From a virus (Duplodnaviria > Caudoviricetes): a stretch of 64,000 nucleotides of DNA. Positions within the stretch are counted from its first letter, which is position 1. Each line of letters opens with the position of its first letter. The translations under genes and the position numbers were made by a program. The stretch covers positions 1-64,000 of the IMG/VR virus record IMGVR_UViG_3300029305_002190. One strand, written 5' to 3'. Positions 1-23,225 of the stretch are shown piece by piece. The notes beneath the pieces were generated by a model. That model did no database searches, was not told where the DNA came from, and worked only from the letters and a program-made list of their open reading frames with translations.

Positions 1-1
1 T

Positions 2-337
2 AAGGACTATGTTGCAGGTGAGGAACCCCTATTCCTACTAGCTCCTCCTATCGTTGCTTTTACCCAGCTAAAGGGTTATGCAGACGAGGACAGATTCTAT
101 AACAAGCAGGGCGACAGAGTTCGTGCTTACACTCTAAGAGTTGGTGACAGAGTTTCTCTATCCGAGAATGCTTTTGATACCGCTCCCGTTGAGAAGCAGT
201 ATGTTACTTATGATGCTTCCGCTAAGCAGTATGTTGTTGCTGATGCTAAGACTGAGGGTCAGTTCTGCGCTCAGGTTCTAACCAAGATTGTTCGTAGCAA
301 TCTAATCATGTACAAACTACAGGTTGTTAGCCTGTAA
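2..337 (+). CDS. 3' part of a putative capsid decoration/head protein (begins before the window)
   Basis: Open frame from base 2 (KDYVAGEEPLFLLAPP...FYNKQGDRVRAYTLRVGDRVSLS...LQVVSL*) ending TAA 335-337. Directly upstream of the capsid gene, with the same strong codon bias. Confidence 0.65.
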   Translation, partial: KDYVAGEEPLFLLAPPIVAFTQLKGYADEDRFYNKQGDRVRAYTLRVGDRVSLSENAFDTAPVEKQYVTYDASAKQYVVADAKTEGQFCAQVLTKIVRSNLIMYKLQVVSL

Positions 338-363
338 TTCTAGAGAAAAGGAGGATGAAAAAT

Positions 364-1479
364 ATGGCTACTCTAATGAATTTTGATGCACATGTTCGTG
401 CTATTTTCGAAAATGATGAAACTAAGTTTGTTAACTTTAATAAGCTAATGGTTGATGCTTCCATCAACAAGTATGAGGAAGGCATTGACGCTAAGACTGC
501 TAATGAGAAGATTAGAAAGGTTTTCAGAGAGGCTATTGGTGTTTCTGAGAATGCTACTAAGCAGGAAATCCGTAAGGCTATTAAGAAGAGAGCTAATGCT
601 CAGATTCTATTTGACCTAATCGAAGAGCTAGTTCCTAATCTACTAAAGTCTGGCTGGGCAGAGAACCCCTTCTTCAAAGAGTTTGTTGAAGAGAGATATC
701 TAGATGAGGGCGACGAGAACATCTTCTATTCTGAGGACAACTCCGTTCTAACTGTTTCTAAGGTTTCCGGTTCCCACTGGGATCTAGACCGTCAGAGACT
801 AGGCAAGGGTTCCAGCTTCTCCATTGAAACTTCTGAGTACGGTATTGCTGTTTACAGCGAGTACGAGAAGCTAATCTGTGGTCTAGAAGACTTTGCTACC
901 TTTATCACCAAGATCTATGAGGCTATTGATAGATTCGTTAACGAAGCTATTTATCAGGCTCTAATGGATGCTGCTGAGAAGCTACCTGGTGGCGCTTCCG
1001 GTGCAGGTCAGTGGGTTAAGACTGGTGCTCTAGATGAGAATACCAGAGGCACCCTAGTTCAGCTAGTTGAGGATGTTCAGATGGCTACTGGTGCTAACGA
1101 GGTTATCATCATGGGTACTAAGGCTGCTCTATCCAAGGTTACTGGTCTACAGAATGTTGACTGGATCTCCAACGAGATGAAGAACGAGCGTCATACCACT
1201 GGTAGAATGGGTATCTGGGAAGGCATCCGTCTAGTTGAGATCAAGCAGGGCTTTGCTCTAGGTGACACCACTAAGAAGCTAGTTGACGACAAGGTTCTAT
1301 TCGTTATGCCTGTCATGGACAATAAGTTCATCAAGCTAGTTAACCGTGGTGAGGATCAGCTAAGAGAAGTTCAGGACAAGACCCTAAATCAGGACATGAC
1401 TTATGATTACAGATACATGTTCCAGATGGGTGTTGGTGTTCTAATCAACCTAATCTTTGGCGAGTGGATCCTAGCTTAA
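364..1479 (+). CDS. Major capsid protein
   Basis: ~371 aa. AAGGAGG at 348-354 fits ATG 364 better than 355. Heads the structural cluster and has extreme high-expression codon bias. Size and sequence character fit an HK97-fold capsid protein. Confidence 0.8.
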   Translation: MATLMNFDAHVRAIFENDETKFVNFNKLMVDASINKYEEGIDAKTANEKIRKVFREAIGVSENATKQEIRKAIKKRANAQILFDLIEELVPNLLKSGWAENPFFKEFVEERYLDEGDENIFYSEDNSVLTVSKVSGSHWDLDRQRLGKGSSFSIETSEYGIAVYSEYEKLICGLEDFATFITKIYEAIDRFVNEAIYQALMDAAEKLPGGASGAGQWVKTGALDENTRGTLVQLVEDVQMATGANEVIIMGTKAALSKVTGLQNVDWISNEMKNERHTTGRMGIWEGIRLVEIKQGFALGDTTKKLVDDKVLFVMPVMDNKFIKLVNRGEDQLREVQDKTLNQDMTYDYRYMFQMGVGVLINLIFGEWILA

Positions 1480-1517
1480 TTATATTAGAAACAAAGGAAT
1501 AAAAGGAGAAAAAAGTT

Positions 1518-2051
1518 ATGGCAAAAAATACAGATATTAATGAAATTGAAGAAGTTAAGGCGGAAACTAAGAAGGAAAAGGCTGTTCAGAAAACTGTTAG
1601 AAAATATGCTCCAACAGATAGAATTCCTTGCCGTAGTCTTACCTATGGCGAGCTACTGCTAACTGGTCCAAAGACAAAGCTATTGCACACTTGGGCCAAC
1701 TATGGAGATGTGACTGAAATGGAGTATCAGGATCTACAGGCTCTGAAGTCTACCAGATCTTCTTATCTATTTAAGCCTAGATTTATCATTGAGGATGAGG
1801 AACTTGTTGAACAGTGGGCTGGTGATTTTAAAAAGATGTATGACGACATTGTAGAAATGGATGTTGAAGCTCTTTTTAGACTACCAATTGGTCAGCTAAA
1901 GGCTAAGCTAAAGAAGGCTCCTGCAGGAGTTCAGTTAGCTGTTAAGAATATGGCTGGCGAAAAGATTATGAACGGCACACTGGATAGTCTTGCTAAGATT
2001 AAGGCAATTGATGAGGTTCTTGATACTCAGTTAATGCTGTATATCAAGTAA
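1518..2051 (+). CDS. Hypothetical head-associated protein
   Basis: 177 aa ORF with AAGGAG RBS, immediately after the capsid gene. Confidence 0.6.
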   Translation: MAKNTDINEIEEVKAETKKEKAVQKTVRKYAPTDRIPCRSLTYGELLLTGPKTKLLHTWANYGDVTEMEYQDLQALKSTRSSYLFKPRFIIEDEELVEQWAGDFKKMYDDIVEMDVEALFRLPIGQLKAKLKKAPAGVQLAVKNMAGEKIMNGTLDSLAKIKAIDEVLDTQLMLYIK

Positions 2052-2068
2052 TTTGGAGGTGAACCTAT

Positions 2069-2485
2069 ATGGGCACTCCATATGAAAAGGTGTATGGTCG
2101 TTTTCTTAATTCAACTACAGATTTTAATCTAGCTGAATTGGACGACCATACATTAAATGAAATGCTTAAAGATTGGTTGCATGGTGCAATTGTAAAGGCA
2201 CGTACCTCAAGTGATTTGACACGTGATGACGAGAATGAAGTCTTTAAGAATGATTTGAGTGATTTGGATACTGAGCTTCTTGCTATGGGTATGAGACTAG
2301 CTTGGCTAGATCAGCGCATTAATTCTACCGAATATACTAACTTGTTTGTTGGTGGAAAAGAAGAAAAGTTCTACTCTCCTTCCTCACAATTATCAGAACT
2401 TCGTGCACTCCGTGCAGACACACTCAGAGAAATGCAACAACTTTACACATATGATACTTATGTGAACAATTCTTACTTTGACTAA
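2069..2485 (+). CDS. Putative head-tail adaptor
   Basis: 138 aa, predicted helical, GGAGGT RBS, in the head-completion position. Confidence 0.5.
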   Translation: MGTPYEKVYGRFLNSTTDFNLAELDDHTLNEMLKDWLHGAIVKARTSSDLTRDDENEVFKNDLSDLDTELLAMGMRLAWLDQRINSTEYTNLFVGGKEEKFYSPSSQLSELRALRADTLREMQQLYTYDTYVNNSYFD

Positions 2486-2498
2486 GGAGGCGTTTCCA

Positions 2499-2804
2499 AT
2501 GAATATTTATAATGAAATGCCGCCCAGTCAAATTGCTGCAGAGAAGGCATATATCCGCTCTGCAATTTTTAAGCTACTACCGTATAAAGAAGAGTCTTAC
2601 GAGTATTTAAATGAATATTTTGGCTCTGTGCTACAACTACTTAAGGGTTTCAATAAGGTTTCTGGCAATCAGCCGGAGATGGTCAGTATTATTAGTAAGA
2701 TTGCATACGCACGTGACGTTGAAGATTTCAGTGAATATCGTAAGGCGATTCTTGATGCTTGTGGATTAGTAGATAGAATCAAGGAGAGTGATCCTAATGC
2801 TTGA
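2499..2804 (+). CDS. Hypothetical neck-region protein
   Basis: AAGGAGG 8 nt before ATG 2499, which fits better than the listed TTG 2478. Confidence 0.55.
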   Translation: MNIYNEMPPSQIAAEKAYIRSAIFKLLPYKEESYEYLNEYFGSVLQLLKGFNKVSGNQPEMVSIISKIAYARDVEDFSEYRKAILDACGLVDRIKESDPNA

Positions 2805-3879
2805 GTCTTATAGACTTCGCATGGCTGCGCTTGGTGGCTACGAAGGTGAAGCTAAGCGTAGGAATGCTCAAAATATTATGGATGCATCTTGGATGCGAGA
2901 TCCAGCCACTAAACTTGTTTATGTTAAATGGGTTGATAGTGGACTACCTGTGATAGATGATGATGACATTCCAGTTTACGCCAAATATAACGTAAAGTCA
3001 TATCACAATATTACGGGTGATGAGGTTGCATATTTATTGCAATTTAGATTAGAAGACATAAAGACCAATTCTAATATTAGGGTTGGCTCTTATGTTCAAA
3101 TTATAAATGAAATGGATGAACCTGAATGGTGGTTAATTGTTCATTATGACGATAGACTGCAATTCAGACAGTTTTCAATTTTGAAATGTACATGGACTTA
3201 CAAATGGGTTTCTAGAGTTAGTGGCAAACGTGTTGTGTATCAATGTCTTGGTGCGCCACGTAAACAGAACTCTTATAACAGTGGTGTTTGGTTAGATTAT
3301 ACTACACAGACTGTTGAGAACCAGGAAGTTTTATGGCTGCCTACAAATGATGATACAAAAACTATTGTTTATGATACTAAATTCTTGAAGTCTTCTCCCG
3401 GCAGATATCCTCCACTTAGATGGACAATCACTAAGATTGAAGATACTGCTATTGATGGAATTTCAAAGTTTACTTTGGCGCAAGATCAATTTGATTCAGC
3501 CAAAGATAATGTTGAATTGATGATAGCTAATTATTATGATTCTTATGTAGAGCCAGAAGTCCCTGAGTTAGAAGAAACTCAAACTGTAAGCGATCTTGAA
3601 ATCGTCTATTCTGGTTCACCAGCTGTGCGTGCGGGTGGTGGATATAAAAAGTTCACTTTAAAAGCACGAGTGGATGGTAAGTTGGTTGATGCAACAGATG
3701 TCAAGTGGAGCGTCGATTTTTCAGACGGCGACTTGGATAAACTTGAGACTTTCGTGAAAGACAATGTGTTTAAAGTAAAGTGTTTGCCATTCTATGATTT
3801 GGTAGGCAAAACATTTACTATTACTGCGGAAAGCAAACATAGTTCAAAATCTCTCATTGTGGAGGTGATTAGTCTATGA
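2788..3879 (+). CDS. Putative head-closure/neck protein with C-terminal Ig-like domain
   Basis: 363 aa, beta-rich, overlaps both neighbours. The C-terminal ~95 aa (…VKWSVDFSD…TFTITAES…) look Ig-like. Start may be ATG 2797. Confidence 0.5.
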   Translation: MILMLESYRLRMAALGGYEGEAKRRNAQNIMDASWMRDPATKLVYVKWVDSGLPVIDDDDIPVYAKYNVKSYHNITGDEVAYLLQFRLEDIKTNSNIRVGSYVQIINEMDEPEWWLIVHYDDRLQFRQFSILKCTWTYKWVSRVSGKRVVYQCLGAPRKQNSYNSGVWLDYTTQTVENQEVLWLPTNDDTKTIVYDTKFLKSSPGRYPPLRWTITKIEDTAIDGISKFTLAQDQFDSAKDNVELMIANYYDSYVEPEVPELEETQTVSDLEIVYSGSPAVRAGGGYKKFTLKARVDGKLVDATDVKWSVDFSDGDLDKLETFVKDNVFKVKCLPFYDLVGKTFTITAESKHSSKSLIVEVISL

Positions 3880-4397
3880 TGCGAGATATTCAAAATATTA
3901 ATGATGACATTAGCGGAATGAAAAGACAGATTAAACAAACGTTAATAGCCGACACGGACATTCTTGAAGTGTTACATAATCCTGATATTGACATTGATAG
4001 TCCAGATGAATTTTTGGACAACAACATCTTTGGATTTATTAGAATTCCTGACACTCAAGACACTGTTCGAAATTTTATATGTGTAACTGTTGATGATATT
4101 GAAGAGCATCGTTTTAATGAAGTGATGAAGATTCAAAATATCACATTTACTGTTATTTGTCATCTTAGTGATATGAAGACTGAGTATGGAGTTGACAGAC
4201 ATGACTTACTTGGATATTTAATTAGAGAGTCTATAAACTGGACAAATTTGTTTGGTTTACAGTTTAAGCTAATTTACAACAAGGAAAGCACTATTGATGG
4301 AGACTATTATTGTAGAACTTTGAAATTTGAAGCCGTCAAGCCAAATTCACTTAATAATGCAAGGATGGCGAATCCTCGTGATAAACTTAGACGTTGA
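3876..4397 (+). CDS. Putative tail terminator/completion protein
   Basis: 173 aa, GGAGGTG RBS, ATGA overlap, located before the tail tube. Confidence 0.45.
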   Translation: MMRDIQNINDDISGMKRQIKQTLIADTDILEVLHNPDIDIDSPDEFLDNNIFGFIRIPDTQDTVRNFICVTVDDIEEHRFNEVMKIQNITFTVICHLSDMKTEYGVDRHDLLGYLIRESINWTNLFGLQFKLIYNKESTIDGDYYCRTLKFEAVKPNSLNNARMANPRDKLRR

Positions 4398-5109
4398 TGA
4401 TTTAAAACTTTATATTGGTGACGATTATGTTATCAATGATAATATTAAAGTTTTACAACCAACTATAAGACAGATTGCTGAATTTGGTGAGCGTGACTTT
4501 TTCTCTGTGGTTCATACAGTAACTGCCATACCTTCTGATATGAAGTCTCAGCTTTGGGACATGGGCCTCGACTGGACAGAGGTTGACGATTTTGAACTAT
4601 TTGTAATGCTTGTGCAGACTTTGACTCCAGATAGAACTGGGCTTTTATTTGGTGACATAGATCTTTCAAAATTGAGACCGTACAAACATCCACATATTGA
4701 AGATGAGATTATTCTGGCCAATAAGGAAGCTGGAATTCTTATTGACAAAATGATATATCTCAGAATCGTGTCCTATCTTCGTAAGGCATTTAATATTACG
4801 CCAAAAGTTGAAAAGGCTGCTAATAAAATGACCAAGAAAATTTTGATTGAAGAAGATAGGATGAAATTAAAATTTAATAAAGATAAGCCTTTTAAGTCTT
4901 TCTTGTTGCCACTGATTTCATCTGTTAAAGTGAGGCAGCGTTATACTAAAGAATATGTACTCAATATGGGGTATGTAGAATTTATGAATGACGTGGCAAG
5001 ATTGCAGGTGATTCATAATGCAGACCATTTGTTAAGTGGTGTGTATGCTGGCACTATTGATATGAAGAAAATTAATAAGGCAGAATTGAATTGGATGAAA
5101 GAGTTGTAA
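4327..5109 (+). CDS. Hypothetical tail-region protein (possible chaperone)
   Basis: ORF between neck genes and tail tube; true start is probably GTG 4378. Confidence 0.5.
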   Translation: MKPSSQIHLIMQGWRILVINLDVDDLKLYIGDDYVINDNIKVLQPTIRQIAEFGERDFFSVVHTVTAIPSDMKSQLWDMGLDWTEVDDFELFVMLVQTLTPDRTGLLFGDIDLSKLRPYKHPHIEDEIILANKEAGILIDKMIYLRIVSYLRKAFNITPKVEKAANKMTKKILIEEDRMKLKFNKDKPFKSFLLPLISSVKVRQRYTKEYVLNMGYVEFMNDVARLQVIHNADHLLSGVYAGTIDMKKINKAELNWMKEL

Positions 5110-5153
5110 ACTCTTTTTATATTTAAAAATTATTTTTATGGAGGTAAGCTATT

Positions 5154-6014
5154 ATGACTTTCGATTTAAATAACTTTGTTATTGATAGAATCGTCCGTGG
5201 TGTTGCTCTAAGCCAGAAGGACGACTCTGTTCTATTTTCTATCAACCAGATCCAGAATGCTTCTCTAAACTGTGCTTCTGAGTCTACTGATGCTGTTGAC
5301 GCAATGGGCACTCCTATTGCTACTTTCTATAGAGCTAAGTCCGCAGAATTTTCTGCTGAGAACGCTCTATTCGACATGGGATTGCTAAGCACCCAGCTAG
5401 GTACCGCAAAGAGAGTCGCAGGTACTAAAGATGTTCCTACTATTACTGTTCCTGCAATGGAGAGTTTTCCTGCTGTTGAGAGTGGCAAGTATACATTAAA
5501 GCATGCTCCTAAGGGTGAAATTAAAGAAATCTATGCTCTAAAGAACGATAGTAGTTTTGGTGATAAACTAATTAAAGGTTCTGAGCCATCTGCCGCTTCT
5601 GAGAACGAGAAGGCAAAGTTTGCTATCGCTGACAGAGAAATTTCTATTGTTGTTAATACCGATCCAGCAACCTTTGATGATCCCTCTAAGGGCATTCCAG
5701 TTGGCACTGAGATGTTTGTTATGTATGAGTATGACACTGACAAAGCAGTTGAGGTTGTCAACTCTGCTAAGAACTTCCCTGTTGGCTGCAAGTTCGTTAT
5801 GGAAGTCCTAGGTTGCGACGTTTGTGATCAGACCAACTTAGTTTATGCTTATGTCATATTCAATAATGCTAAGCTAAGCCCTGACTTCGACTGGTCCATC
5901 GCTACCGATGGTACTCACCCCTTCTCTATGAAGGCTCAGCAGGATTACTGCGACAAGGAAAAGAGACTATTCTCCATCGTTATCCCTGAGGTTGAGGACG
6001 AGGACGAGGAATAA
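5154..6014 (+). CDS. Major tail tube protein
   Basis: 286 aa, beta-rich with acidic C-terminus, GGAGGT RBS, high-expression codon bias, position after the neck genes. Confidence 0.7.
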   Translation: MTFDLNNFVIDRIVRGVALSQKDDSVLFSINQIQNASLNCASESTDAVDAMGTPIATFYRAKSAEFSAENALFDMGLLSTQLGTAKRVAGTKDVPTITVPAMESFPAVESGKYTLKHAPKGEIKEIYALKNDSSFGDKLIKGSEPSAASENEKAKFAIADREISIVVNTDPATFDDPSKGIPVGTEMFVMYEYDTDKAVEVVNSAKNFPVGCKFVMEVLGCDVCDQTNLVYAYVIFNNAKLSPDFDWSIATDGTHPFSMKAQQDYCDKEKRLFSIVIPEVEDEDEE

Positions 6015-6162: not shown

Positions 6163-6987
6163 GTGAGGTTATTATGTATGGAATATAGAACGCCTGATGC
6201 TTTGTGTGGTGTTTATAAAATCACTAATCTTATTAATGGGAAAGTTTACATTGGACAAAGTATAAATATAAAAAATAGATGGAAAGATCATGTAAATGCA
6301 CTTAATAGAAAAGATAGCAATTGTACACTTTTACAGCGTGCGTGGAATAAGTATAAACAAGAAAATTTCTCTTTTGAAATTTTAGAATTATGCTCAGAAG
6401 AGATGTTGGATGAAATTGAAAGTAAATATATTGATATTTATGATGCATGTAAAAATGGATATAATATAGAACCTGGCGGTAATATTAATAAACATTTATC
6501 AGACGAAACTAAACAAAAAATACGAGAAGCACATCTTGGTATGAAAGCGTCAGATGAAACGAGAAGAAAAATGTCAGAATCTAGAATAGGAGAAAAGAAT
6601 CCTATGTATGGACAAACACATTCTGAATCTGCTCGTAAAAAAATCAGTGATACCGCTAAGGGTAGGCCAGGATATCCGAGAACGGATTATCAAAAAGAGT
6701 GTGCTAGATTGGCTAATTTAGGTAAAGAAGTTTCTGAGAAAACACGAAAGAAAATTAGCGAAGCCAACAAAGGCAATATTCCACATAATAAAAACTTACG
6801 ACTAGTATATTGTGTTGAACTGAATAAAGTATTCGAAAACGCATCGTCCGCAGGCAAAGAATTAAATATCCGCAGTAGTAACATTATTAATTGTTGTGAG
6901 CACACTAGAAAGACGTGTGGTGGGTATCGTTGGATGTATGTGGATACTGATGAATATATTAAATTTATTCAGCAATTAACAATATAA
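6163..6987 (+). CDS. Free-standing GIY-YIG homing endonuclease with NUMOD3 repeats and NUMOD1-like C-terminus
   Basis: GVYKITNLINGKVYIGQS…RW..H…E…GYN; repeats HLSDETKQKI, SDETRRKMS, GEKNPMYG, HSESARKKIS; C-terminal I..CC…KTCGGYRW. Confidence 0.9.
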   Translation: MRLLCMEYRTPDALCGVYKITNLINGKVYIGQSINIKNRWKDHVNALNRKDSNCTLLQRAWNKYKQENFSFEILELCSEEMLDEIESKYIDIYDACKNGYNIEPGGNINKHLSDETKQKIREAHLGMKASDETRRKMSESRIGEKNPMYGQTHSESARKKISDTAKGRPGYPRTDYQKECARLANLGKEVSEKTRKKISEANKGNIPHNKNLRLVYCVELNKVFENASSAGKELNIRSSNIINCCEHTRKTCGGYRWMYVDTDEYIKFIQQLTI

Positions 6988-7734: not shown

Positions 7735-8475
7735 ATGCCACAAAATATTTTTAAAATCTATGATGGTCGAACTAATTTTTGGCAATGGGATACTCAACAA
7801 AAGTTAATTGTCCTAGATGACCGCATTACAGAAGTTCGTTTTTCCAATAGAAACATGGAACACTCAAAGCGTAGAATTGTTTATAAAGATAATGACGGCA
7901 ATAGAATTTGCAACGTTCCAGACATACTATTACAGCTACCAAAAAATTTAGTGGCATATGCTTGTATAAAACAAGACGACGGATCTGTCAGTACAATTAA
8001 ATCAGTACAATTCGCTGTTGCAAGGCAACCTATTCCATCTGATTATATTTGCGAACAAGACGCAGCAGTAGAAGCAATTCTTGATAGAATTGAGATTCTA
8101 GAGGACTTCATCAAAGATATTGAAACTGGCAATCAAGAGCTCAAGAAGTTTGATAATATGATCGATGCAGCAAAATGGGCGAAAGAAGAAGGAATTGCTG
8201 GTAATATTGTTGTCGTATATGTGGAAGATAGGTGGGTTCCTCATGTTGTAGAAAATGATTTAGCTTTATCTCCTATTTGTGATTGCAGTGGAGAAGCTAT
8301 GAATATGGGTATTTATGTGCCTCGATTTGAACATGATAAATTGATTTTTGAATTAAAAGATACTCCTGGAGAAGAAGAAATTATTTATGATCTTGATAAG
8401 AGTAACGAGTGGGGCTCAATTGATGATGCTAGTGGAGAGAGAAGCGGCAACTATATTTGGGAGACTCTCGAATAA
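7735..8475 (+). CDS. Putative fibre anchor (BppU-like N-terminus)
   Basis: FWQWD…VRFSN…VPDILLQ…RQPIPSDY motif typical of baseplate-upper-type domains; ends YIWETLE. Confidence 0.5.
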   Translation: MPQNIFKIYDGRTNFWQWDTQQKLIVLDDRITEVRFSNRNMEHSKRRIVYKDNDGNRICNVPDILLQLPKNLVAYACIKQDDGSVSTIKSVQFAVARQPIPSDYICEQDAAVEAILDRIEILEDFIKDIETGNQELKKFDNMIDAAKWAKEEGIAGNIVVVYVEDRWVPHVVENDLALSPICDCSGEAMNMGIYVPRFEHDKLIFELKDTPGEEEIIYDLDKSNEWGSIDDASGERSGNYIWETLE

Positions 8476-8527
8476 ATTCACTCAGAGAGTGTTTTTATAA
8501 ATTAATTTTATGGAAAGGAGATAACAA

Positions 8528-9361
8528 ATGGCTAACGTTTTATTTAAAGTTGGTACAAGAGCTCAGTTTGATGCTATTGTTACCAAAAGCGAAACTACTT
8601 TATACTGGCTAAGTGATACACAAGAGCTATATAAAGGCGATGTTCTGTTTGGCAAGGGCGCATTGGCTTCTGAGGAAGCTGCTGGTCTATTATCTGCAGA
8701 AGACTATAAGAAATTAAAAGAACTAATTGCCACTGGCGGCGCTGTTGAACTAACCCCTGTTAATGGTTCTATTGTCATTAAAGACAAGAAGATTGGTGTT
8801 GGTTTGTCTGCCGTTGAAGGCAACATGCTATCTATTAAAGACGACGGCCTATTTGCTGCATCAGTTGATCTGACAGATGTGCAAAATAGACTAACCGCTG
8901 TCGAAGGTAGTATTGCTCAGCTGCAAGAGGATATTGTTGGCGGCATTCGCTACAAGGGTACTGTTGAAACCGTAGACGACCTACCCGATGATGCAAAACA
9001 GGGCGATTTATATGAGGTAACCGCTGACGGTTCTGAGTGGTGTTATAATGGCGAAAAGTGGTTTGAGTATGGTTCTGCCCACTTTACTCCTGTTGCTGGA
9101 GGCGGCATTCAGATTAATGGCAATGAGATTGCTGTAAATATTGCAGAAGAGTCTCATGGCCTAGTTGCCGTTGACGGCGCTTTATCCATCAATCTAGCAA
9201 CTGCTGAAAGCGATGGCGCTATGTCTGCTGCTGATAAAGTTGCACTAGATGCTCTAATTGCTCTTCGTATTGCCGAGAATTATGCTACTAAAGAAGAAAT
9301 GCAAACTATTTCTGAGAAAGTTACATCTGCAGAAGATTCTTTCACTTGGGGCGAGATGTAA
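8528..9361 (+). CDS. Fibre-like structural protein
   Basis: N-terminal FKVG…LYW..D…LY domain, short coiled coil, YKGTVETVDDLP module, ends FTWGEM. Confidence 0.6.
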   Translation: MANVLFKVGTRAQFDAIVTKSETTLYWLSDTQELYKGDVLFGKGALASEEAAGLLSAEDYKKLKELIATGGAVELTPVNGSIVIKDKKIGVGLSAVEGNMLSIKDDGLFAASVDLTDVQNRLTAVEGSIAQLQEDIVGGIRYKGTVETVDDLPDDAKQGDLYEVTADGSEWCYNGEKWFEYGSAHFTPVAGGGIQINGNEIAVNIAEESHGLVAVDGALSINLATAESDGAMSAADKVALDALIALRIAENYATKEEMQTISEKVTSAEDSFTWGEM

Positions 9362-9402
9362 TTGATAATACAAAATTAATATTTTTAGGAGGAAAATAAA
9401 TT

Positions 9403-11523
9403 ATGGCTGAAAATATGATTAAATTTCTAAGAGGTAATGTTGCCTCTCTACCTCAGACTGCCACCGCTGGTGCTGTTTATTTCACTAAGGATGAAGGTCT
9501 ATATCTAGGTCTAGCTGATGGTTCCTACCATCGTTATGGCGACTTCATTGAGGTTGCAAACGTTGATTCTCTACCTGCTGAGGGCGCACACGTCAAGGCT
9601 ATGTACTACTGCACCGCTGAGAACATTCTAGCTAAGTGGAATGGCGCTAAATGGGTTCAGATTAATAAGCAGCAAACTCTAGCTGAGCTAGGCGGTGTTG
9701 CTAAGTCCGTTTATGATGCTAAGATGGCTGCTCTAGAAAAAGCCGACACCGACAACGCTACCGCTATCGCTGGCGTTGACACCAGACTAGCAGCTGCTGA
9801 AAAGAAGCTAGAGTCTGTTGCTACTACCGAGGGTCTAGGTGAACTAGCTGAGACTGTTGCTGGTCATACTGCTGCTATTGACACCATTAATGGTGACGTT
9901 AATACCGCAGGCTCTATGCTAAAGATTGCTAAGGATGCCGCTGACGCTAAGAATGCTGCTATTGAGGCAGCTCAGAATGCAGCTGACAAGGCACAGGGTG
10001 ACGTTGATGCTCTAGCTGGTACTCACGCTACTGATAAGGCTGCACTAGAGGGCGCTATTGCTCTAAAGGCTAACGCTGCCGACGTTTACGACAAGGATGC
10101 TATCGATGGCAAGGTTGACACCATCAATGGTGCTATCGACCTAAAGGCTAACGCCGCTGACGTTTATACCAAGGATGACGTTGACGGTATGGTCGATGAT
10201 CTAGAAGCTGCTGATCTAGCTATAAACAACCTAATTGGCGATGTTACTGAAGGCAAGACTGTTGTTGAGATGATTGCTGACGCACAGTCTGCAGCTTCTT
10301 ATGACGACGAAGAGGTTCGTGGTCTAATTGACACTAACGCTCAGGCTATCGAGAAAGAGATTTCTGATCGTGAAGGCGCTGTTTCTGGTCTAAAGACTGA
10401 GCTAGAAGGTAAGATCAACACCAAGGTCGAGCAGGAAGCTTATGATACCAAGGTTGGTGCGCTAGAAGATGAGGACGAAAGACTAGCTGGTCTAATTGGT
10501 GACAATGCTGACGCTATCGATGGTGTTGAGGCTAAGGTCGATACTCTAGTTGGCACCGATACTGGTAAGTCTGTTCGTACCATTGCTAATGAGGAACTAG
10601 CTGCTCAGTTAATTCCTGCAAACGCTGCTGAAGCTCTAAATACTCTACAGGAGATCGCAGCTTGGATTCAGGCACATCCCGGTGATGCTGCTACTATGAA
10701 TGCTGCTATCGAAGCTCTACAGGCTAAAGTTGATACTGGTGATCAGACTGTTTCTGCATACGTTACTGCCGCTATCAATGCTCTAAGCATTGGCGACTAT
10801 GCTACTGTTGCTGCACTAGGTGAGGCTGTTGAGCGTATTGCTGATCTAGAAGAGGCTTCTGCTACTCATGCTCTAAAGACTGAGGTTGAGGCTGTTTCTG
10901 ATGCCCTAGATGAATATAAGACTGCTCATAACGGTGATTACACAAATGCTCAGGTTGATGCTAAGGTCAAGGCTGTTCAGGATCAGGTTGACGTTCTAAA
11001 TGACACCTATGCTACCGACAAGGAGCTAACTGATGCTATTGCTGCAGAGGTTGAACGTGCTAATGGCGCTTATGCTGCTAAGGCCGCTACTGAGGCTCAC
11101 ATTGACGATACTGATATTCACGTAACTACTGAGGACAAGGCTAAGTGGAACGGTGCCCAGGCTGCTGCCGAAGCTACTGCTGCTGCCGCTCTAGCTACTG
11201 CTCGTACTGAAATTACTGCAGAAATTGCTACCGCAAAGGGCGAGGCCATTTCTGATGCAGAAGGTAAGATTGCTACCGCTAAAGCAGAAGCTATTGCCGA
11301 TGCTGAGGGTAAGATCGCTACTGCAAAGGGTGAAGCAATTGCTGATGCAGAAGGTAAGGTCAATGCTGCTAAGTCTGATCTACAGGGAAAAATCGACACT
11401 GTTTCTGGTGCTCTAAATACTTACAAGACTGAAAATGACGCTGTTGTTTCTCTAAAGGCTAATGCAGCTGATGTCTACAACAAGGCTGAAGTTGAAGCTA
11501 TGCTAACTTGGGGCGAGTTTTAA
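9403..11523 (+). CDS. Long Ala-rich coiled-coil fibre protein, probably high copy
   Basis: 706 aa with ALKANAADVY-type repeats, LNTLQEIAAWI motif and 15-aa repeats; ends LTWGEF; capsid-like codon bias. Confidence 0.65.
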   Translation: MAENMIKFLRGNVASLPQTATAGAVYFTKDEGLYLGLADGSYHRYGDFIEVANVDSLPAEGAHVKAMYYCTAENILAKWNGAKWVQINKQQTLAELGGVAKSVYDAKMAALEKADTDNATAIAGVDTRLAAAEKKLESVATTEGLGELAETVAGHTAAIDTINGDVNTAGSMLKIAKDAADAKNAAIEAAQNAADKAQGDVDALAGTHATDKAALEGAIALKANAADVYDKDAIDGKVDTINGAIDLKANAADVYTKDDVDGMVDDLEAADLAINNLIGDVTEGKTVVEMIADAQSAASYDDEEVRGLIDTNAQAIEKEISDREGAVSGLKTELEGKINTKVEQEAYDTKVGALEDEDERLAGLIGDNADAIDGVEAKVDTLVGTDTGKSVRTIANEELAAQLIPANAAEALNTLQEIAAWIQAHPGDAATMNAAIEALQAKVDTGDQTVSAYVTAAINALSIGDYATVAALGEAVERIADLEEASATHALKTEVEAVSDALDEYKTAHNGDYTNAQVDAKVKAVQDQVDVLNDTYATDKELTDAIAAEVERANGAYAAKAATEAHIDDTDIHVTTEDKAKWNGAQAAAEATAAAALATARTEITAEIATAKGEAISDAEGKIATAKAEAIADAEGKIATAKGEAIADAEGKVNAAKSDLQGKIDTVSGALNTYKTENDAVVSLKANAADVYNKAEVEAMLTWGEF
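11224..11358 (+). repeat. 3 x 45-bp coding tandem repeat
   Basis: IATAKGEAISDAEGK / IATAKAEAIADAEGK / IATAKGEAIADAEGK. Confidence 0.85.
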
Positions 11524-11544
11524 TTAAAATTAAATAATCTATAT

Positions 11545-11574
11545 GGGCTGGCGAGGAAACTCGCTGGCCCTTTT
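11545..11574 (+). terminator. Intrinsic terminator after the 706-aa fibre gene
   Basis: gggctggcgag-gaaa-ctcgctggccc followed by TTTT. Confidence 0.75.
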
Positions 11575-11697
11575 AAAAAAATATATTTTAGCATACTTAA
11601 ATTTGAAAACAATCGTTGGCTTTGGACGGTCAGAGACGCAGAGTTTACGTTTATATAAAGCCAACATTATAATCCTATTGACGAAAGAGGGTTAAAA

Positions 11698-12303
11698 ATG
11701 TTATTTAAAATTTTACATGGAGATGCGTCACGTATCTCAACAAATATTACTCCATATCACGAGGGTTATTGTTATGTAACTCATAATGGTGACTTCTATG
11801 TGGATATGAATGATGAGCGTGTTAAGCTCAATGCCAAAGATGCGGAGACTATCATGGGTGCATCCTTGGCAACAATTCTAAGTAACACAGACTTAGAAAT
11901 ACCCACCTCAAATGCTGTTCTCTCAGCTATCGAAGCAGCTACTGAGGTTTATGTTGGTCCAGATATGCCAACAGATCCTAACATTAAAGTGTGGATTAAT
12001 ACTTCCGAAGAAGGCACTGGTGTAGTTCCTGTGTTGCCTAGAATTTCTACTATTAGTCTACCAAAAGCCAGTTGGAGTGGTGGCTCAAGTCCATATTACC
12101 AGACTGTTATGATTAATACTGTAACTCCTGCCACGAAGATTGAGCTTAATCCTACCGTTGCTCAGATTGTGAGTTTACAGAATGATGACATTGCACTTAT
12201 GGCAGAAAATGATGATGGAGAAGTTAAGGTATATTCTTTTGGTGGAAAGCCATCTAATGATATGGCCATTCAGGTAACACTTACGGAGGTGAGCTACGTA
12301 TGA
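11698..12303 (+). CDS. Fibre adaptor; C-terminal domain paralogous to 13800..14111
   Basis: N-terminal FKILHG…GYCYVT..GDFY domain; C-terminal W.G.SSPY.Q…ENDDG.V.VY..G.KP.ND..IQVT.TEV domain. Confidence 0.6.
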   Translation: MLFKILHGDASRISTNITPYHEGYCYVTHNGDFYVDMNDERVKLNAKDAETIMGASLATILSNTDLEIPTSNAVLSAIEAATEVYVGPDMPTDPNIKVWINTSEEGTGVVPVLPRISTISLPKASWSGGSSPYYQTVMINTVTPATKIELNPTVAQIVSLQNDDIALMAENDDGEVKVYSFGGKPSNDMAIQVTLTEVSYV

Positions 12304-12494
12304 TTTCTGGAAACATGGTCGGTGCATATAGTTCTATAGGTAAAACTTTTATTATTGTTGACGAAAATGGCAATGAGTTAACAGGAGTTATTGTAGACAA
12401 GGAAGTTATTTTTACAGCAGAAGATAATGATGTTAGAGAAGGAAAAATTTATGCCTCTGACGACGGCGTGTCTGTTGGTACATTAAAAGTTTGA
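12300..12494 (+). CDS. Small hypothetical structural protein
   Basis: 64 aa, GGAGGTG RBS, ATGA overlap with the upstream stop. Confidence 0.55.
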   Translation: MISGNMVGAYSSIGKTFIIVDENGNELTGVIVDKEVIFTAEDNDVREGKIYASDDGVSVGTLKV

Positions 12495-12539
12495 TAATTA
12501 TATTAAAATTAAACAAAAGATAAAAAAGGAGGTTACATA

Positions 12540-13349
12540 ATGCCCGTAACCTATGTAAGAAATGAACAGGGAGAATTTGAAAAAATTAGCCACGGCGCAA
12601 CAACTGACACCACTCTCTCTCAGTTAGGTGTGCCAGCAGATGCAGCAGCAGTCGGTGCCGCTCTAACAAATTATGCAACAGAGGCTTATGTTAGTGGTAT
12701 AACGAATGGTCTTCAGGCTCAGTTAGATGGCAAAGCTGAATCTAGCCATGGCACACACGTGTCTTTCACAACAACTGCCCCAAAACTTGCTGGCACTGCC
12801 GCAGCTGGCTCTGCCACTACTGTTTCTAGAAGTGATCATGTGCATCCTGCACAGACAACCGTTTCTGGAAATGCAGGTTCTGCTACCAAATTGGCTACTG
12901 CAAGAACTATTCGCACTAACTTGGGCTCTACTAGCACTGCAAGTTTTGATGGTAGTGAAAATATAACTCCTGGTGTCACTGGAACTTTGCCTGTAGCCAA
13001 TGGTGGTACTGGTCAGACCAAAGCATGGACTAATGGTACTGTTTCAAGTGTGAACAGCACAACCGTTACGTCAGCACAATTTGCCACATTCCCTTATTTG
13101 AATAAGGCATTTATTAGATTAAATATTCTTACTCCTAGAGCAATTGCCGCAGATGATGCGGAGTTTATTGCTCTACCATCTACAATTCCCACTGCACATA
13201 CAGCATTAGCTTGTTACAATGAGATTGGTTATGACATTCATGCTGGAGTATCTTCAGTTGCGGGTAAGGGAGTCTATATTATGAACAGTGGCACTTCAAG
13301 CATGCCAAAAGGTACTCGCTTATATATAGCTGGATGGTATTCAATTTAA
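12540..13349 (+). CDS. Short tail fibre / receptor-binding protein
   Basis: DTTLS..G.PADA.AVG module, SRSDHVHP, GNAGSATKLATARTI and GTLPVANGGTG fibre motifs, beta-rich tip. Confidence 0.65.
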   Translation: MPVTYVRNEQGEFEKISHGATTDTTLSQLGVPADAAAVGAALTNYATEAYVSGITNGLQAQLDGKAESSHGTHVSFTTTAPKLAGTAAAGSATTVSRSDHVHPAQTTVSGNAGSATKLATARTIRTNLGSTSTASFDGSENITPGVTGTLPVANGGTGQTKAWTNGTVSSVNSTTVTSAQFATFPYLNKAFIRLNILTPRAIAADDAEFIALPSTIPTAHTALACYNEIGYDIHAGVSSVAGKGVYIMNSGTSSMPKGTRLYIAGWYSI

Positions 13350-13361
13350 GGAGGACAAAAC

Positions 13362-13730
13362 ATGAAAATTTTAATTGATGAGAACAAATATTTGACTTGT
13401 TTTTGTATAGATGCAGAGTTGGAAAATGGCATTGAAGTTGCTGATCCAGATGATATAGAATCTTTTATTGATACATTCAGAGCCTATAAATATGAAAATG
13501 GAAACTTGCTTTTAGATGAACAAAAATTGCAGTCTGTAAATGATACACGCACTGCAGATGAACTAAGATTTAAAAGAGAAAAAGCTTGTTTTCCAATCAT
13601 TAATCGTGGCGAATTGTGGTATAGCAGATTAACTGCAGATCAGAAAAAAGAGTTGGATACATGGTATCAAGCATGGCTTGATGTGACTGACACAAAGGTA
13701 TTGCCTAATATGCCAATGTGGTTAAATTAA
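13362..13730 (+). CDS. Putative tail fibre assembly chaperone
   Basis: 122 aa following the fibre; LRFKRE…WYQAWLDVT…P.W pattern typical of fibre chaperones. Confidence 0.6.
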   Translation: MKILIDENKYLTCFCIDAELENGIEVADPDDIESFIDTFRAYKYENGNLLLDEQKLQSVNDTRTADELRFKREKACFPIINRGELWYSRLTADQKKELDTWYQAWLDVTDTKVLPNMPMWLN

Positions 13731-13749
13731 TAATTAAATTACGATTACT

Positions 13750-13775
13750 GAGCCCACTATCCCTGGGCTCTTTTT
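13750..13775 (+). terminator. Intrinsic terminator
   Basis: gagccca…tgggctc followed by TTTTT. Confidence 0.65.
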
Positions 13776-13799
13776 AAAACTAAAAGGAGGGATTTAAAA

Positions 13800-14111
13800 A
13801 TGGCAACAAAAAAAATTCAAATCTTGGGACCATTATCTAAATCTAGTTCAAAAATTGCATACGTTGACTTACTTGCATCAAACTGGATTGGTGATTCAAG
13901 TCCCTATTCTCAAGTCGTCGAAATTGACGGAGTTACAGAGAACAGTCAAGTTGACCTAACACCAAGTATCGAACAGCTAGTCGTCTTTTATGAAAAAGAC
14001 CTTGGCTTTGTCACGGAGAATGAAGATGGTGTTGTCACTGTATATGCCATTGGTCAAAAGCCAGAAAATGACTATACAATTCAAGTCACTATTACGGAGG
14101 TGCAGGTATGA
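13800..14111 (+). CDS. Stand-alone adaptor domain, paralog of the 11698 C-terminus
   Basis: Aligns by eye with residues ~115-201 of ORF 11698. Confidence 0.65.
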   Translation: MATKKIQILGPLSKSSSKIAYVDLLASNWIGDSSPYSQVVEIDGVTENSQVDLTPSIEQLVVFYEKDLGFVTENEDGVVTVYAIGQKPENDYTIQVTITEVQV

Positions 14112-17100
14112 GCAGAAAAATTATTGGTGTAACCGTTGGCACCACACTGCCAAAGCCTAACTTTAAGCAGACTGACCCCACTAAGGGTGACTACATTAAA
14201 AACAAACCTGACTTTGATGGCTTGAAGTCTAAGGTTGAACAAATCGAAGTTAGAGTTGACACTATGCAAGAGAATGCATATGACGATACTGAGCTTAGAG
14301 GTATCGTGTCTGAGAACGTAGCAAAGGTTGACACTCTTAATGAACTAGTAGGTAATACTAAGGTTGAAACTCAGATTAATAACGCAGTTACTGCTTTAGA
14401 GTCTGAAATTGATAACAAGTTTGACACCATGCAATCAGATATTGACTCTAAGGTTGATGCAGTCGATGGTATGGGATTGTCTACAAACGACTACACTACC
14501 GCTGAAAAAGACAAATTAGCAACAGTAGAGCCAAATGCAAACTTCTATGAACACCCTGTTCATGATTCTCATAGTTCAGGTCTATACAAAGTCACAGTTG
14601 ATGCTTCTGGTCACGTATCTGGTGCCACTCTTGCAGAAAAGGAAGACATTGTTGCTCTTGGAATTCCTGCACAAGATACTACATATGATGAAGAAATTTC
14701 AGATTTAAGCGATAGAATTGATGGTGTGGAAGATAGTATTAATACTACTAACGAAGCAATAGAAGGCGTTACTCAAGAGTTTGAAAATTATAAAACAACC
14801 AATAACGAGGCTGTTTCAACCAACGCTAGTGGTATTGAGGCCAACAAAACTGCTATTGAAGCAATTCAAGGTGACTATCTAACATCAACCGACAAAACAC
14901 AGTTACAAGACGACATTTCAAAAGTATCTGAAAAGGCCACTACAAATGCATCTGCAATAGAAATCTTAAATGGTGAAGGCGATGGATCTGTTAAGCAATC
15001 TATCGATAATGCTTTTAATGAATTTGCTGCAAATGTGAGCGACGATAAAGTAGTTAATACATACAAGGAATTAATTGATTATGCGGCAACACATGGCCCA
15101 GAGTTTACTGAGCTCGTAGGCAAGGTTGACACTATCAACACTCATGTTGGCGAAATCGAAGTTGATCTCTCTGATTATAAAACCTCTGTATCCGATCAAT
15201 TTGCCGAAGTTGATACAACAATTAACGACCATATTACTGATACAGATAATCCTCATAGTGTTACTAAAGAACAAATTGGTCTTTCTAATGTTGATGATAC
15301 TTCTGACTTAGATAAGCCAATTAGCAATGCTATGCAGGAAGCTTTGGATGAAAAAGCAGATTTAGAACATGCGCATAGTGATTTATATTACGACAAGGAT
15401 GAGATTGAGGAGCTTGTTACAGTTGACGATATTGATGACATATGTGGATCCAATATAATTATTGACGGTGGTAATTCAAGCGTAGTAAGTTATGCCACCA
15501 AGCAGTGGGTGCAGGATGGATATCAGCCTAAAGGAAATTATTTAACATCAGTACCAGATGGTTATGCTACTGAATCATATGTAGATACTAAGGTTGCAAC
15601 AATCCCAACACCTGACGTTTCTGGTCAGATTAATACTCACAATTTAGCCACTGATGCTCATAATGACATTAGATTACTTGTTGATGGTTTGACAACTCGT
15701 TTAAATACATTGGCGGACTGTGATGATGCTACTCTTGACCAAATGAGTGAAGTTGTTGAGTACATTAAAAGTAACCAGTCATTAATTGAAGGTATCACAA
15801 CTAAGAAAGTTAATGTTGCTGATATTGTTGACAACTTAACTACAAATGCATCTAATAAGCCCTTGAGTGCATCTCAGGGCGTAGTATTAAAGGGTTTAAT
15901 TGATGAATTAACAAGTAACTTGTCTAATTATCAACCAAAAGGCGACTATTTGACTGCGGTTCCAACTGGTTATGCTACAGAGGAATTTGTAACTGCTAAA
16001 ATTGCAGAAGCTGAACTAAGTAGTGGAAGTGGCAGTTCTATATCTGTCGATACTACTTTAACACAAGCCGGTGCTGCTGCTGATGCAAAGGCTGTTGGTG
16101 ATGCTATTAATAATCTTTCTGGTTTAAATGATGACATTACAGAGAAGGTTGAGAGAGCAGAAACAGCGGCAGAAGAAGCAGAAGCTGCAAAAAGAGATGC
16201 TTTAACTTATAAAAACGATGCTTTAGCTTCTAGATCACAAGCGCTTAGTTCTGCTAGTAATGCGGCTACTTCAAAAACACAAGCGGCATTATCTGCGACT
16301 AATGCGTCTAAGTCAGCTACTAAAGCAGAAGAAGCGGCAACCAGAGCAGAGGAAGCTGCAATCAGAGCAGAGGAAGCGGTTGCGAATGTTGAAAACGTCG
16401 ATTTAACTGGTTACGCCACTGAAAGCTGGGTGGGTGAAAACTACCAACCAAAAGGTAATTATCTAACAGAAGTTCCAGAGGGTTATGCCAAGACAGAGGA
16501 TATTCCTACTAAGCCTGAGGATATTGGTGCATTACCTGCGGACACCGTAATTCCTACGGTTCCTACTAATGTATCTGCTTTTGCTAACGACGCAGGTTAT
16601 CTTACCGAACACCAAAGTCTTGATGATTTTGCAACTGAACTTTATGTAGATTACAAGATTGCAACAATTCCTACTTCCTTAAATTTATATTTTTATGAAA
16701 GTCTTTCCACTGCTATTAGTGATATTAATAATAGTGTGATTGCAAATGCTATTGCCGACAACAGCGTAGCCAAAGTAAAGGTATTCCATGCAGACAATGG
16801 TAGAACTACTGTCATGTTGCTAGACGATATTTCTGAAAGTGTACAAATTGATATCAACAAGGACATTGATTTGGTTCTTAATGGTAAGATACTAACATTT
16901 ACAACTTCAGGTGCCTATTTGAACTTTGCTTTAGATACAGATTGTACTATTAATGGCGAAGTTAATGGCAGCTTGATTACAAAGAATGTTTCTGGAGGTA
17001 TTGCGCCATTTTATCTAATTAACTCTAATGGTATTTTGAAAATGAAGAGTGGCAATTACCACATTGAAACTGATAGTTTGGTCAGCATGATTGGAGTTAG

Positions 17101-22700: not shown

Positions 22701-23225
22701 ACCAGGTATCTGTATCTGGACAGCGGCAGATATTCCTTAAGTGACGAGGAAACCACATTCATCATCAATGCACTGAAGGATACCCCGGCAGGGTGGCATA
22801 TCGTGGTATTTAGTCACATCTGGTTCCAGTATGAAAACGCATCGACACCTACCACCGGAACTGTGAATGCTTATATGCAGAAAGCTCTGAATCTGTTCGA
22901 TGCCTATAACGGCAGACAGAGCGGCAGCATCACCATGGTCAGCACAGCGCAGTCCTATGACTTCACGAACTGTGGCGGCAAGGTGGAATTCTGCATGGGT
23001 GGTCATATCCATGTTGACCATGAGCTTTATTCCACGGAAGGTATTCCTGTTATTCTCACTGCGTCCGATGTAAACCAGGAACGAAGTTCAGATGAGACAG
23101 AGGATAGTGGTGCAATCGGCACTATCACGGAGTCGGCAGTGTTCGGCATTATTGCCGACTATAACACCAACAAAATCACAGTGGTTGGAGTTGGTAGAGG
23201 AACTGACCGAGTGATTTCGTACTAA
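19785..23225 (+). CDS. Fibre/spike with SHAEG repeats and C-terminal calcineurin-like metallophosphoesterase
   Basis: 14-aa SHAEG repeats; collagen-like GxDG/GYTPVKGVDY segments; phosphoesterase motifs TDAH, GGD, GNHD, SH, GHIH. Confidence 0.8.
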   Translation: MQNFMKTIISAVQTWTKGKIKDSTADWNQNDSSADNYVKNRTHWDSRKTEKINITFDGTLDGKEYLDPDGNGSFYLVKVSDLTPSIEEVTGGAFSAVENGEVVETLEITDGLILIESDTLYSISNGGISIALEDTGMGNGLVFTKGTWFFMEITPEEYFYYSDLSYTKEIGELKKLDSKYLDIPESIATTDDVKSVLDVVNEARSIADTAMTNAATAQTTADSKMNTANPVGSGSFSMNRKSGTTVGGNSHTEGYNTTASKLYSHAEGDQTTASGQSSHAEGYCTTASGHMSHAEGDRTTASGDTSHAEGYRTSTDNIEPTVYSLAFGYQHNGWYAHAEGGGTVARGAMSHAEGHGTKAYGYVSHSEGLGARASSDFQHVQGKYNTEDSEDKYTHIVGNGTADDARSNAHTIDWNGVGWFQGGLQVGGNAQDDGAKNVLLEGDAIPVPSTATVGQTVAVKTVDENGKPTEWEVVDMASADLTGYATEDWVDANYQPKGEYLTEHQDISGKLDASELPTAINTALAQAKESGEFDGEDGVDGYTPVKGVDYFDGNDGLPGYTPVKGVDYYTEAEQAEWEAYIATELAKRGQIKPEYANNIEECTDTTKLYVLPDGYIYAYIYRENSGPAYTNLADPTSADWLTNKRFSTSSISDFTGAYITNYIPCKPGDTIRMKGVDLETAINSTPRTRMYLDGQSVGIADYYVKSLITAGYGSFDSVTGITTFQLLNVSQTDGSADGSEITDYTFNSIRQNFRLLSGYTVNNVIITVNEEIAEGSVSGYRWANTGHAFVPADYEDRIVDLEKDVADNTSRINVLETSADMGASVPTYWAAHLQEKAEAIQLAMETSGRNKSAFLWYTDAHWANGNSKMSPALLNYLYRNTAMNKVNFGGDVVGDPAENTHDAISYVYEWRRMIKDLPNHHSVIGNHDNFHKGSADSEYQSMVYSFLLAPEETDNMVGDGLFYYYIDSPREKTRYLYLDSGRYSLSDEETTFIINALKDTPAGWHIVVFSHIWFQYENASTPTTGTVNAYMQKALNLFDAYNGRQSGSITMVSTAQSYDFTNCGGKVEFCMGGHIHVDHELYSTEGIPVILTASDVNQERSSDETEDSGAIGTITESAVFGIIADYNTNKITVVGVGRGTDRVISY
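20532..20888 (+). repeat. 42-bp SHAEG coding repeats (8 units)
   Basis: (t/g)ctcacNcaga(g/a)gg at 20532, 20574, 20616, 20658, 20700, 20790, 20832, 20874. Confidence 0.85.

Follow-up and report, generated by a model that had tools for sequence, protein, structure and literature searches.

The stretch analysed here (the window) comprises bases 1–64,000 of a 109,183-base IMG/VR virus record (IMGVR_UViG_3300029305_002190, referred to below as G000), which is linear and 69% complete according to CheckV. The head, neck and tail module lies on the + strand within the window, which is best explained as the opening 64 kb of a long-tailed phage of ~160 kb infecting an animal-gut bacterium. Our subject is the choice of leucine (Leu) codons in the major capsid protein gene, close to the start of the window, and in a few other virion genes, where CTA is used nearly or wholly to the exclusion of its synonyms. 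Leu codons were counted by script over the open reading frames (ORFs) of the window, and the genes that carry the comparison are listed here, with sizes in amino acids (aa).

2–337, + strand: head-module gene preceding the capsid gene, represented by its 3′ part and open at its 5′ end (PHROG 4147, unknown function); nine of ten Leu codons are CTA, one is CTG.
355–1479, + strand: major capsid protein gene, 374 aa (PHROG 4088, E 6e-70); CTA at 30/30 Leu codons.
5154–6014, + strand: probable major tail (tube) protein, 286 aa; CTA at 11/15.
8528–9361, + strand: fibre-like protein with an N-terminal motif in common with the 706-aa fibre (PF24243 at residues 7–27); intermediate, CTA at 13/25.
9403–11523, + strand: Ala-rich coiled-coil fibre, 706 aa; CTA at 45/46.
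21300–23225, + strand: contrast segment, the C-terminal part of a 1146-aa protein, GC 0.46–0.48; CTG at 20/36, CTA at none.
41302–54492, + strand: contrast gene, tape measure, 4396 aa (PF10145 at residues 1854–2069, E 5e-21); CTA at 65/374.

The share of CTA among Leu codons reached 1.0 in the capsid gene, 0.98 in the 706-aa fibre and 0.9 in the head gene preceding the capsid gene; it was 0.73 in the tube gene and ~0.2 elsewhere. Seven large genes, pooled as background, gave 148/780 (0.19), a rate at which the probability of obtaining 30/30 is about 2e-22; a homing endonuclease gene (6163–6987) had CTA at 1/19 Leu codons and a 1330-aa gene (14108–18100) at 11/89. The segment at 21300–23225 looks imported. 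A preliminary description of this DNA had read all 30 capsid-gene Leu codons as CTA, had seen CTA dominate the upstream head gene, tail tube and 706-aa fibre, and had reported mixed Leu codons in the homing endonuclease and tape measure and a preference for CTG at ~21300–23225, and on each of these points the scripted counts agree with it. The span that it gave to the capsid gene, 2–1479, does hold that gene, but consists of two ORFs, the capsid gene proper occupying 355–1479.

The CTA habit is concentrated in the genes expected, from their identity, to have the highest copy number. The capsid protein shows ~30% identity to the annotated major capsid proteins of Bacillus phages Thrax1 and Kirov. 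For the product of 5154–6014, a profile of 14 homologues searched against PDB sequences matched tail tube proteins (8k98_A and 9jgh_A, E 0.0015), and the ten best Foldseek matches of an alignment-based AlphaFold model (pLDDT 62) were all tail tube proteins (E 3.6e-6 to 2.4e-4), with TM scores of just 0.22–0.24; profile and model give moderate support to its probably being the tail tube protein. Because the tape measure has 4396 aa a very long tail is expected, and the tube protein would therefore be made in copy numbers comparable to that of the capsid protein. In the orthologue of the tube gene in a related genome, G002, CTA occupies 15/15 Leu positions.

The bias acts at the level of codons, is specific to the reading frame and is restricted to the top genes. 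Within the capsid gene, CTT, CTG, TTA and TTG were each found 0 times in frame, compared with 14, 21, 16 and 19 times out of frame, and it is in frame only that the other five Leu codons are excluded. Moreover, the same genes were as extreme at Ala, Val, Thr, Gly, Lys and Gln: the capsid gene used GCT at 25/28, GTT at 27/28, AAG at 27/29 and CAG at 13/13 of the relevant positions, encoded Thr by ACT or ACC only and Gly by GGT or GGC only, and was devoid of GTA, ACA, TCA, CCA and GGA. A frame-specific exclusion, together with extreme bias at all amino acids, indicates that the cause is translational. Of the earlier proposal that virion genes are tuned to a single tRNA-Leu(UAG), the codon-level bias in genes of expected top copy therefore stands, but within those genes the bias is not peculiar to Leu. 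Non-translational causes, be they biased mutation, the composition of the strand or selection against a motif in DNA or RNA (a restriction or nuclease site, for example), are contradicted by these data and strike us as exceedingly improbable. The coding strand is purine-rich (21387 A and 18779 T in the window), and CTA in place of CTT is a choice of A for T; yet A-bias cannot explain CTA, because every other four-codon family in the same genes prefers T and shuns A (GTT 27 vs GTA 0, ACT 13 vs ACA 0). Motif avoidance is excluded because CTT, CTG, TTA and TTG are present at ordinary counts out of frame and missing only in frame, and the preferred Lys codon, AAG, is the reverse complement of CTT, so that CTT/AAG is not avoided as DNA.

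Comparison with relatives separated the Leu codons from all others. Capsid homologues 97–98% identical to that of the window (L009–L011) had CTA at 29/30 Leu codons, while homologues 84–85% identical (G001, G004) had 22–23 CTT and 0–2 CTA, and the tube and fibre orthologues were split between CTA and CTT in the same way. With the top genes pooled, CTA accounted for 86/91 Leu codons in G000 and 44/45 in G002, as against 0/87 in G004 and 2/99 in G001. Between the capsid genes of G000 and G004, whose proteins are 84% identical, the codon was the same at 176/268 conserved non-Leu sites and at 0/28 conserved Leu sites, where CTA faced CTT or CTC; between G000 and G001 it was the same at 160/272 non-Leu sites and 2/26 Leu sites. 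Close relatives have thus undergone wholesale recoding of Leu alone, an unusually clean natural experiment in which a capsid gene was transferred among related phages with two thirds of its non-Leu codons intact and every Leu codon altered. A shift was seen in weakly biased genes too: at 382 conserved Leu sites in such orthologues, G000 and G001 had CTA at 74 vs 25 and CTG at 61 vs 24. CTA and CTG are the two codons read by a UAG anticodon, and both are raised in G000.

Among more distant homologues, the dominant Leu codon differed by lineage. Fifty-eight distinct capsid homologues were collected and one was dropped, its in-frame stops pointing to an insertion; each of the remaining 57 had a single dominant Leu codon (CTG, CTT, CTC or TTA, depending on the lineage), and CTA was dominant in three, two from the window's own clade and the third being L089 (the same as G310). 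In-frame stops likewise removed 16 of 62 distinct tube sequences. CTA was the commonest Leu codon in 22 of the 40 tube genes with ≥46% identity and in none of the six with 25–29% identity, and since it is commonest in 22 of these 40 nearer genes the CTA habit marks a large and diverse clade of 150–170-kb phages. Several tube and capsid homologues of relatives are split by insertions. At E ≤ 1e-5, a search of the protein collection gave 1949 relatives of the tube protein, and contigs of 140–172 kb carried many of them; such numbers make this clade an abundant and diverse one, yet it is without a cultured member.

G000 is itself a mosaic. Its capsid protein (85%) and DnaE (82%), along with a number of genes for replication and repair, are nearest to CTT-type G001, and its neck and tail genes (67–82%) and integrase (91%) are nearest to CTA-type G310; it is through this mosaicism that a capsid gene whose nearest kin are CTT-coded comes to stand in a CTA genome. 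The CTA habit follows the host-specifying tail and integrase modules and not the genealogy of the capsid gene, and from these modules we infer that G000 and G310 may well have a host group in common. The capsid gene is a swapped module, 85% identical to its counterpart in G001 and 64% to that in G310, next to neck genes that are 67–82% identical to G310 and 39–49% to G001.

The phage is rich in tRNA genes, among which the decoder of CTA was sought. ARAGORN found 20 in G000 (23 with its intron option) and Infernal 20, in a cluster at 97.9–109.2 kb of the contig that reaches to within 19 bases of its end, and they include Leu(CAA) and Leu(UAA). No canonical tRNA-Leu(UAG) was found in the 109-kb contig by ARAGORN, intron option included, or by Infernal, and none was found in any of the seven CTA-type genomes, namely G000 and six that are complete by CheckV (G310 and G522–G525, with terminal repeats, and G521, classed as linear, CheckV 100%); for G521–G525, ARAGORN was run on the regions holding all Infernal tRNA matches of the whole records. 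Leu(CAA) was present in 7/7 CTA-type genomes (6/6 of the complete ones) and Leu(UAA) in 5/7 (4/6). Codons cognate to the phage tRNAs are near-absent from the top genes and common elsewhere, in G310 as in G000, where their fractions in top genes and in the rest were 0.04 vs 0.27 for TTA, 0.01 vs 0.17 for TTG, 0.02 vs 0.36 for ACA, 0.02 vs 0.28 for GGA and 0.03 vs 0.57 for CAA. In G000 this does not apply to Gln(CTG) and its codon CAG, nor to the GNN tRNAs that serve two-codon families.

The single decoder tRNA-Leu(UAG) is the natural target of the CTA habit, and the explanation that we favour, and regard as fairly probable, is that translational selection strongly favours, in the virion genes of top copy number, a tRNA-Leu(UAG) supplied by the host, whose own top genes may prefer either CTA or CTG. 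A handful of virion genes would be made in far larger amounts than the others and would experience very strong selection on codon choice. Their set (GCT, GTT, ACT/ACC, GGT/GGC, AAG, CAG, GAG, AGA/CGT and, for Leu, CTA only) would be read by host tRNAs, CTA by a host tRNA-Leu(UAG) that would be abundant or especially efficient. The rest of the genome draws on an A-ending, AT-rich set (TTA, TTG, ACA, GGA, CCA, TCA, CAA) cognate to the 20-odd tRNAs of the phage. A host-supplied tRNA is the most likely source because the phage and its complete CTA-type relatives lack a canonical tRNA for CTA.

The preliminary description had offered a phage-encoded tRNA-Leu(UAG), to which the top genes would be tuned, as one option; with no canonical example in G000 or in the six complete CTA-type relatives, we consider it very unlikely. 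The contig is 69% complete and its tRNA cluster runs almost to the contig end, so a further gene might lie beyond, but G002, which spans 47 kb upstream of the capsid gene, has no tRNA match. A relative does encode Leu(UAG), together with Leu(UAA), yet this is the complete CTT-type genome G001, the very one with CTT in its top genes. Some odd genes have unclear anticodons, among them one of type II in G310 whose loop region contains CTAG and a type-II tRNA-like gene of 92 nucleotides (nt) in G000 (contig 97893–97984, with a 6-nt loop); the latter was undetected by Infernal with the Rfam tRNA model, and its discriminator base is G, which we take to be an identity mark of serine and not of leucine. 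Five further tRNA genes of G000 (within contig 102964–103359 and 108341–109084, which are L028 7964–8359 and 13341–14084) carry inserts of ~50–80 nt in the anticodon loop, Infernal aligning both halves, and these are not of Leu type because their variable regions are short.

A different account starts from the loss of other tRNAs: tRNA-Leu(UAG) would be the Leu tRNA still usable during infection, the others having been cleaved, whether by the phage or by an anticodon nuclease of the host, or drained by demand, and the top genes would run on a ‘private lane’. T-even infection reportedly cleaves an Escherichia coli leucine tRNA, according to literature of the 1970s; among the top results of a literature search, nothing was directly relevant to CUA use in phage capsid genes or to leucine tRNA cleavage on T4 infection. 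In favour of depletion, G000 encodes an RNA-repair-like set, as follows.

Contig G000 87039–91818, 96312–97451, 101035–102588 and 64316–65011, minus strand: RNA-repair-like set with Pfam matches to Thg1, AAA_33 with HD (a kinase with an HD domain), RNA_ligase and DUF2828/DUF7788.

This set, which also includes an RNA ligase with a PHA02142 OB fold, a class-V aminotransferase resembling cysteine desulfurase and a vWA protein, suggests a possible role in tRNA repair or counter-defence, and it is common in part to G001 and G310. Depletion would also agree with the presence in the clade of Leu(UAA) and Leu(CAA) as replacement tRNAs, and with the fact that no sampled genome pairs CTA with the other preferences of the phage. 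Furthermore, Leu tRNA supply is a known point of phage–host conflict: as reported in PMC11726456, Synechococcus WH5701 owes its resistance to phage Syn9 to low levels of Leu(TAA) tRNA. There, as it would be here, a single leucine isoacceptor limits or permits the translation of key phage genes, although in that system it is Leu(TAA) and the resistance was shown by experiment, whereas the present case, known from sequence, would concern Leu(UAG). We nevertheless consider depletion rather unlikely. CTT-type G001 has the repair genes as well, so that their distribution does not parallel that of CTA; TTA, TTG and CTT are used without restraint in the majority of late genes, the 4396-aa tape measure among them; and some non-structural genes are CTA-enriched too (for example contig 78685–79098, 8/15), which argues against a purely late-phase change. 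A related view, that CTA is not copied from the top genes of the host at all, and that large AT-rich phages instead exploit a host tRNA-Leu(UAG) left unloaded by host messages or other phage genes, we hold to be on the unlikely side, if a little less so than depletion. Phage-made tRNA-Leu(UAA/CAA) and other UNN tRNAs would then carry the rest of the genome. Such a lane would explain both a clade without tRNA-Leu(UAG) and a codon set unmatched in any sampled bacterium.

Several results count against selection for a host-supplied tRNA as the explanation, or limit how far it can be taken. The preliminary description had proposed CTA frequency as a proxy for copy number, and CTA does mark some five top genes, but across 90 ORFs with at least eight Leu codons its share had hardly any relationship to capsid-likeness at other amino acids (Spearman 0.08, p 0.46); it is a marker of a top class and not a graded scale. 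In several of the phage tRNA genes the anticodon loop carries an interruption, which leaves their anticodons uncertain. In Table S1 of Hershberg and Petrov 2009 (PMC2700274), CTA is the listed optimal Leu codon in just one of 675 bacteria. A survey of 147 EF-Tu genes, which had little power (from 70 Clostridia-class genomes, 30 Patescibacteria, 30 members of the phylum of a small-genome Bacilli metagenome-assembled genome (MAG), and the loci of a motif screen), found none that pairs CTA with the other codon preferences of the phage. A few Clostridia in which CTA is the commonest EF-Tu Leu codon prefer GTA, ACA, GCA, GAA and CAA, unlike the phage (r 0.03–0.16; 0.03–0.07 in four such genomes). 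The best EF-Tu matches to the phage at non-Leu codons (r 0.80–0.83) use CTG, and the same genes are also the best matches for CTT-type phages; for this reason the survey has little resolving power, and the hosts of CTT-type phages were not pinned down by it either. tRNA-Leu(UAG) was present in all three of the closest-matching Clostridia genomes, in two copies in one of them, which makes plausible a host that writes CTG and yet reads CTA well.

Other routes to the host gave little more. The motif screen, of 401 Clostridia genomes, recovered CTA-CTA at one conserved EF-Tu motif in 13; the single-site pattern at the GHVDHGKTTL motif was discarded as an indicator, the site not following the overall usage of its gene in 27 loci. 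Patescibacteria were set aside as hosts, their 30 EF-Tu genes showing weak bias and no CTA dominance. Searching species-representative genomes with the capsid protein returned nothing, and an alignment-based capsid search returned only distant matches in MAG contigs, probably pieces of phages. The best of these, at 51% over part of the protein, was on a 125-kb contig of 28% GC binned with an Absconditabacterales MAG (L045), where the capsid homologue (9400–10640) is matched only from residue 164 and a GIY-YIG-like endonuclease frame lies directly upstream in the same frame; that capsid gene is probably interrupted by a homing endonuclease. A host using genetic code 25 is unlikely, TGA being the stop codon of 16 of 85 ORFs of G000; TAG is the rarest stop in these phages (3/85 ORFs in G000). 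Among five handles compared, a Clostridia MAG had the DnaE closest to that of the phage, at just 33%, and for the CTG-rich segment 21300–23225 weakly similar sequences turned up in 2 of the 399 Clostridia genomes that were scored (best 38% identical, in a genome whose EF-Tu gene contains no CTA). For the cysteine desulfurase, no informative taxa came out of the protein atlas.

Expression-linked codon bias in phages is of a known kind. Late genes of T4 are said to show such bias towards host-preferred codons (Cowe and Sharp 1991), structural genes reportedly do so across phage genome landscapes (Lucks et al. 2008), and phage tRNAs have reportedly been described as compensating for codon differences (Bailly-Bechet et al. 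2007). The present bias resembles those cases in being strongest in the highest-copy virion genes, in affecting all amino acids and in depending on lineage, as would be predicted of a bias that tracks the tRNA pool of the host. It differs from them in being unusually absolute (30/30, 45/46) and in favouring a codon that, in PMC2700274, is listed as optimal in 1/675 bacteria. Codon compensation by phage tRNAs, as summarised in PMC10264068, has a parallel in the bulk of G000, whose tRNAs are cognate to TTA, TTG, ACA, GGA, CCA, TCA and CAA, all common in the AT-rich remainder. For Shigella phage Sf14, phage tRNAs were proposed to raise the expression mainly of structural late genes (PMC12482277), and the opposite holds here, in that the late genes expected to be most expressed avoid the codons of phage tRNAs. 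What is unusual is therefore the absoluteness of the bias, the rarity of the codon, the clean recoding of Leu alone, and the avoidance of phage-tRNA codons by the top late genes.

These features indicate how strong an influence a single isoacceptor can have on the genes that a virus expresses most. They also amount to a split of labour, in which the top virion genes run on codons unserved by the phage tRNAs and the rest of the genome on codons that are served, counter to the widespread view that such tRNAs chiefly benefit late structural genes. Once the tRNA set of the host is known, the codons preferred by the top genes could be used as a signature to predict hosts for this abundant, uncultured clade of gut phages of ~150–170 kb.

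Apart from the virion module, the remaining contig of G000 carries, on the minus strand, the replication and nucleotide genes DnaE, class II ribonucleotide reductase, ThyX, LigA and RecJ, together with a large serine recombinase, PnuC and NadR-like genes and the RNA-repair-like set described above. The serine recombinase (646 aa) occupies 62088–64000 of the window, the gene running on to position 64028 of the contig, and is 91% identical in G310; a large, tRNA-rich phage that encodes such an enzyme may be temperate. A nucleotide search of phage records gave no match, and the capsid protein had 68 matching records, all below 60% identity, with no close cultured relative among them. Large siphoviruses of Firmicutes (the Lactococcus 949 group, Bacillus phages PBC2 and vB_BanS-Thrax1, and Brevibacillus phage Sundance) resemble this phage in having a capsid protein ~30% identical, a genome of >100 kb, a tRNA cluster and a very long tape measure, but the phage described here stands without a close cultured relative or a nucleotide match.

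Sequencing runs that contain the stretch came from animal faeces and bovine gut metagenomes, in 14 studies, and four runs recorded as RNA contain it too. Positions 122–2602 were covered by one RNA-library contig of 2481 nt with a single mismatch. In two runs from one study, cover fell mostly on 1–6000 and 8000–11300, with none at 11340–15300; contigs are no basis for ranking expression and the runs had been selected with this stretch, so this cover carries no weight in the argument.

Interrupted tRNA genes of similar kind to those of G000 were seen in G001, G310 and G522–G524. The insert of one such gene in G000 (108341–108491) is itself a 77-nt tRNA-like gene ending in CCA, and three of the inserts have in common a motif like ACAGCAATTTT. 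The anticodon CTA, resembling that of an amber suppressor, was assigned by ARAGORN to an uninterrupted tRNA gene of G523 (L351 1932–2006) and to an interrupted type-II gene of G310 (56966–57071).

The homing endonuclease gene at 6163–6987 is of the GIY-YIG type and separates the tube gene from the structural genes that follow. On the 3′ side of the tape measure gene come a DUF6558 tail protein (54550–55692) and then a protein of 1402 aa. By the usual rule, tail length follows tape measure size at ~0.15 nm per residue, so that 4396 residues would correspond to a tail of roughly 650 nm; few siphoviruses, if any, have been credited with a longer one.

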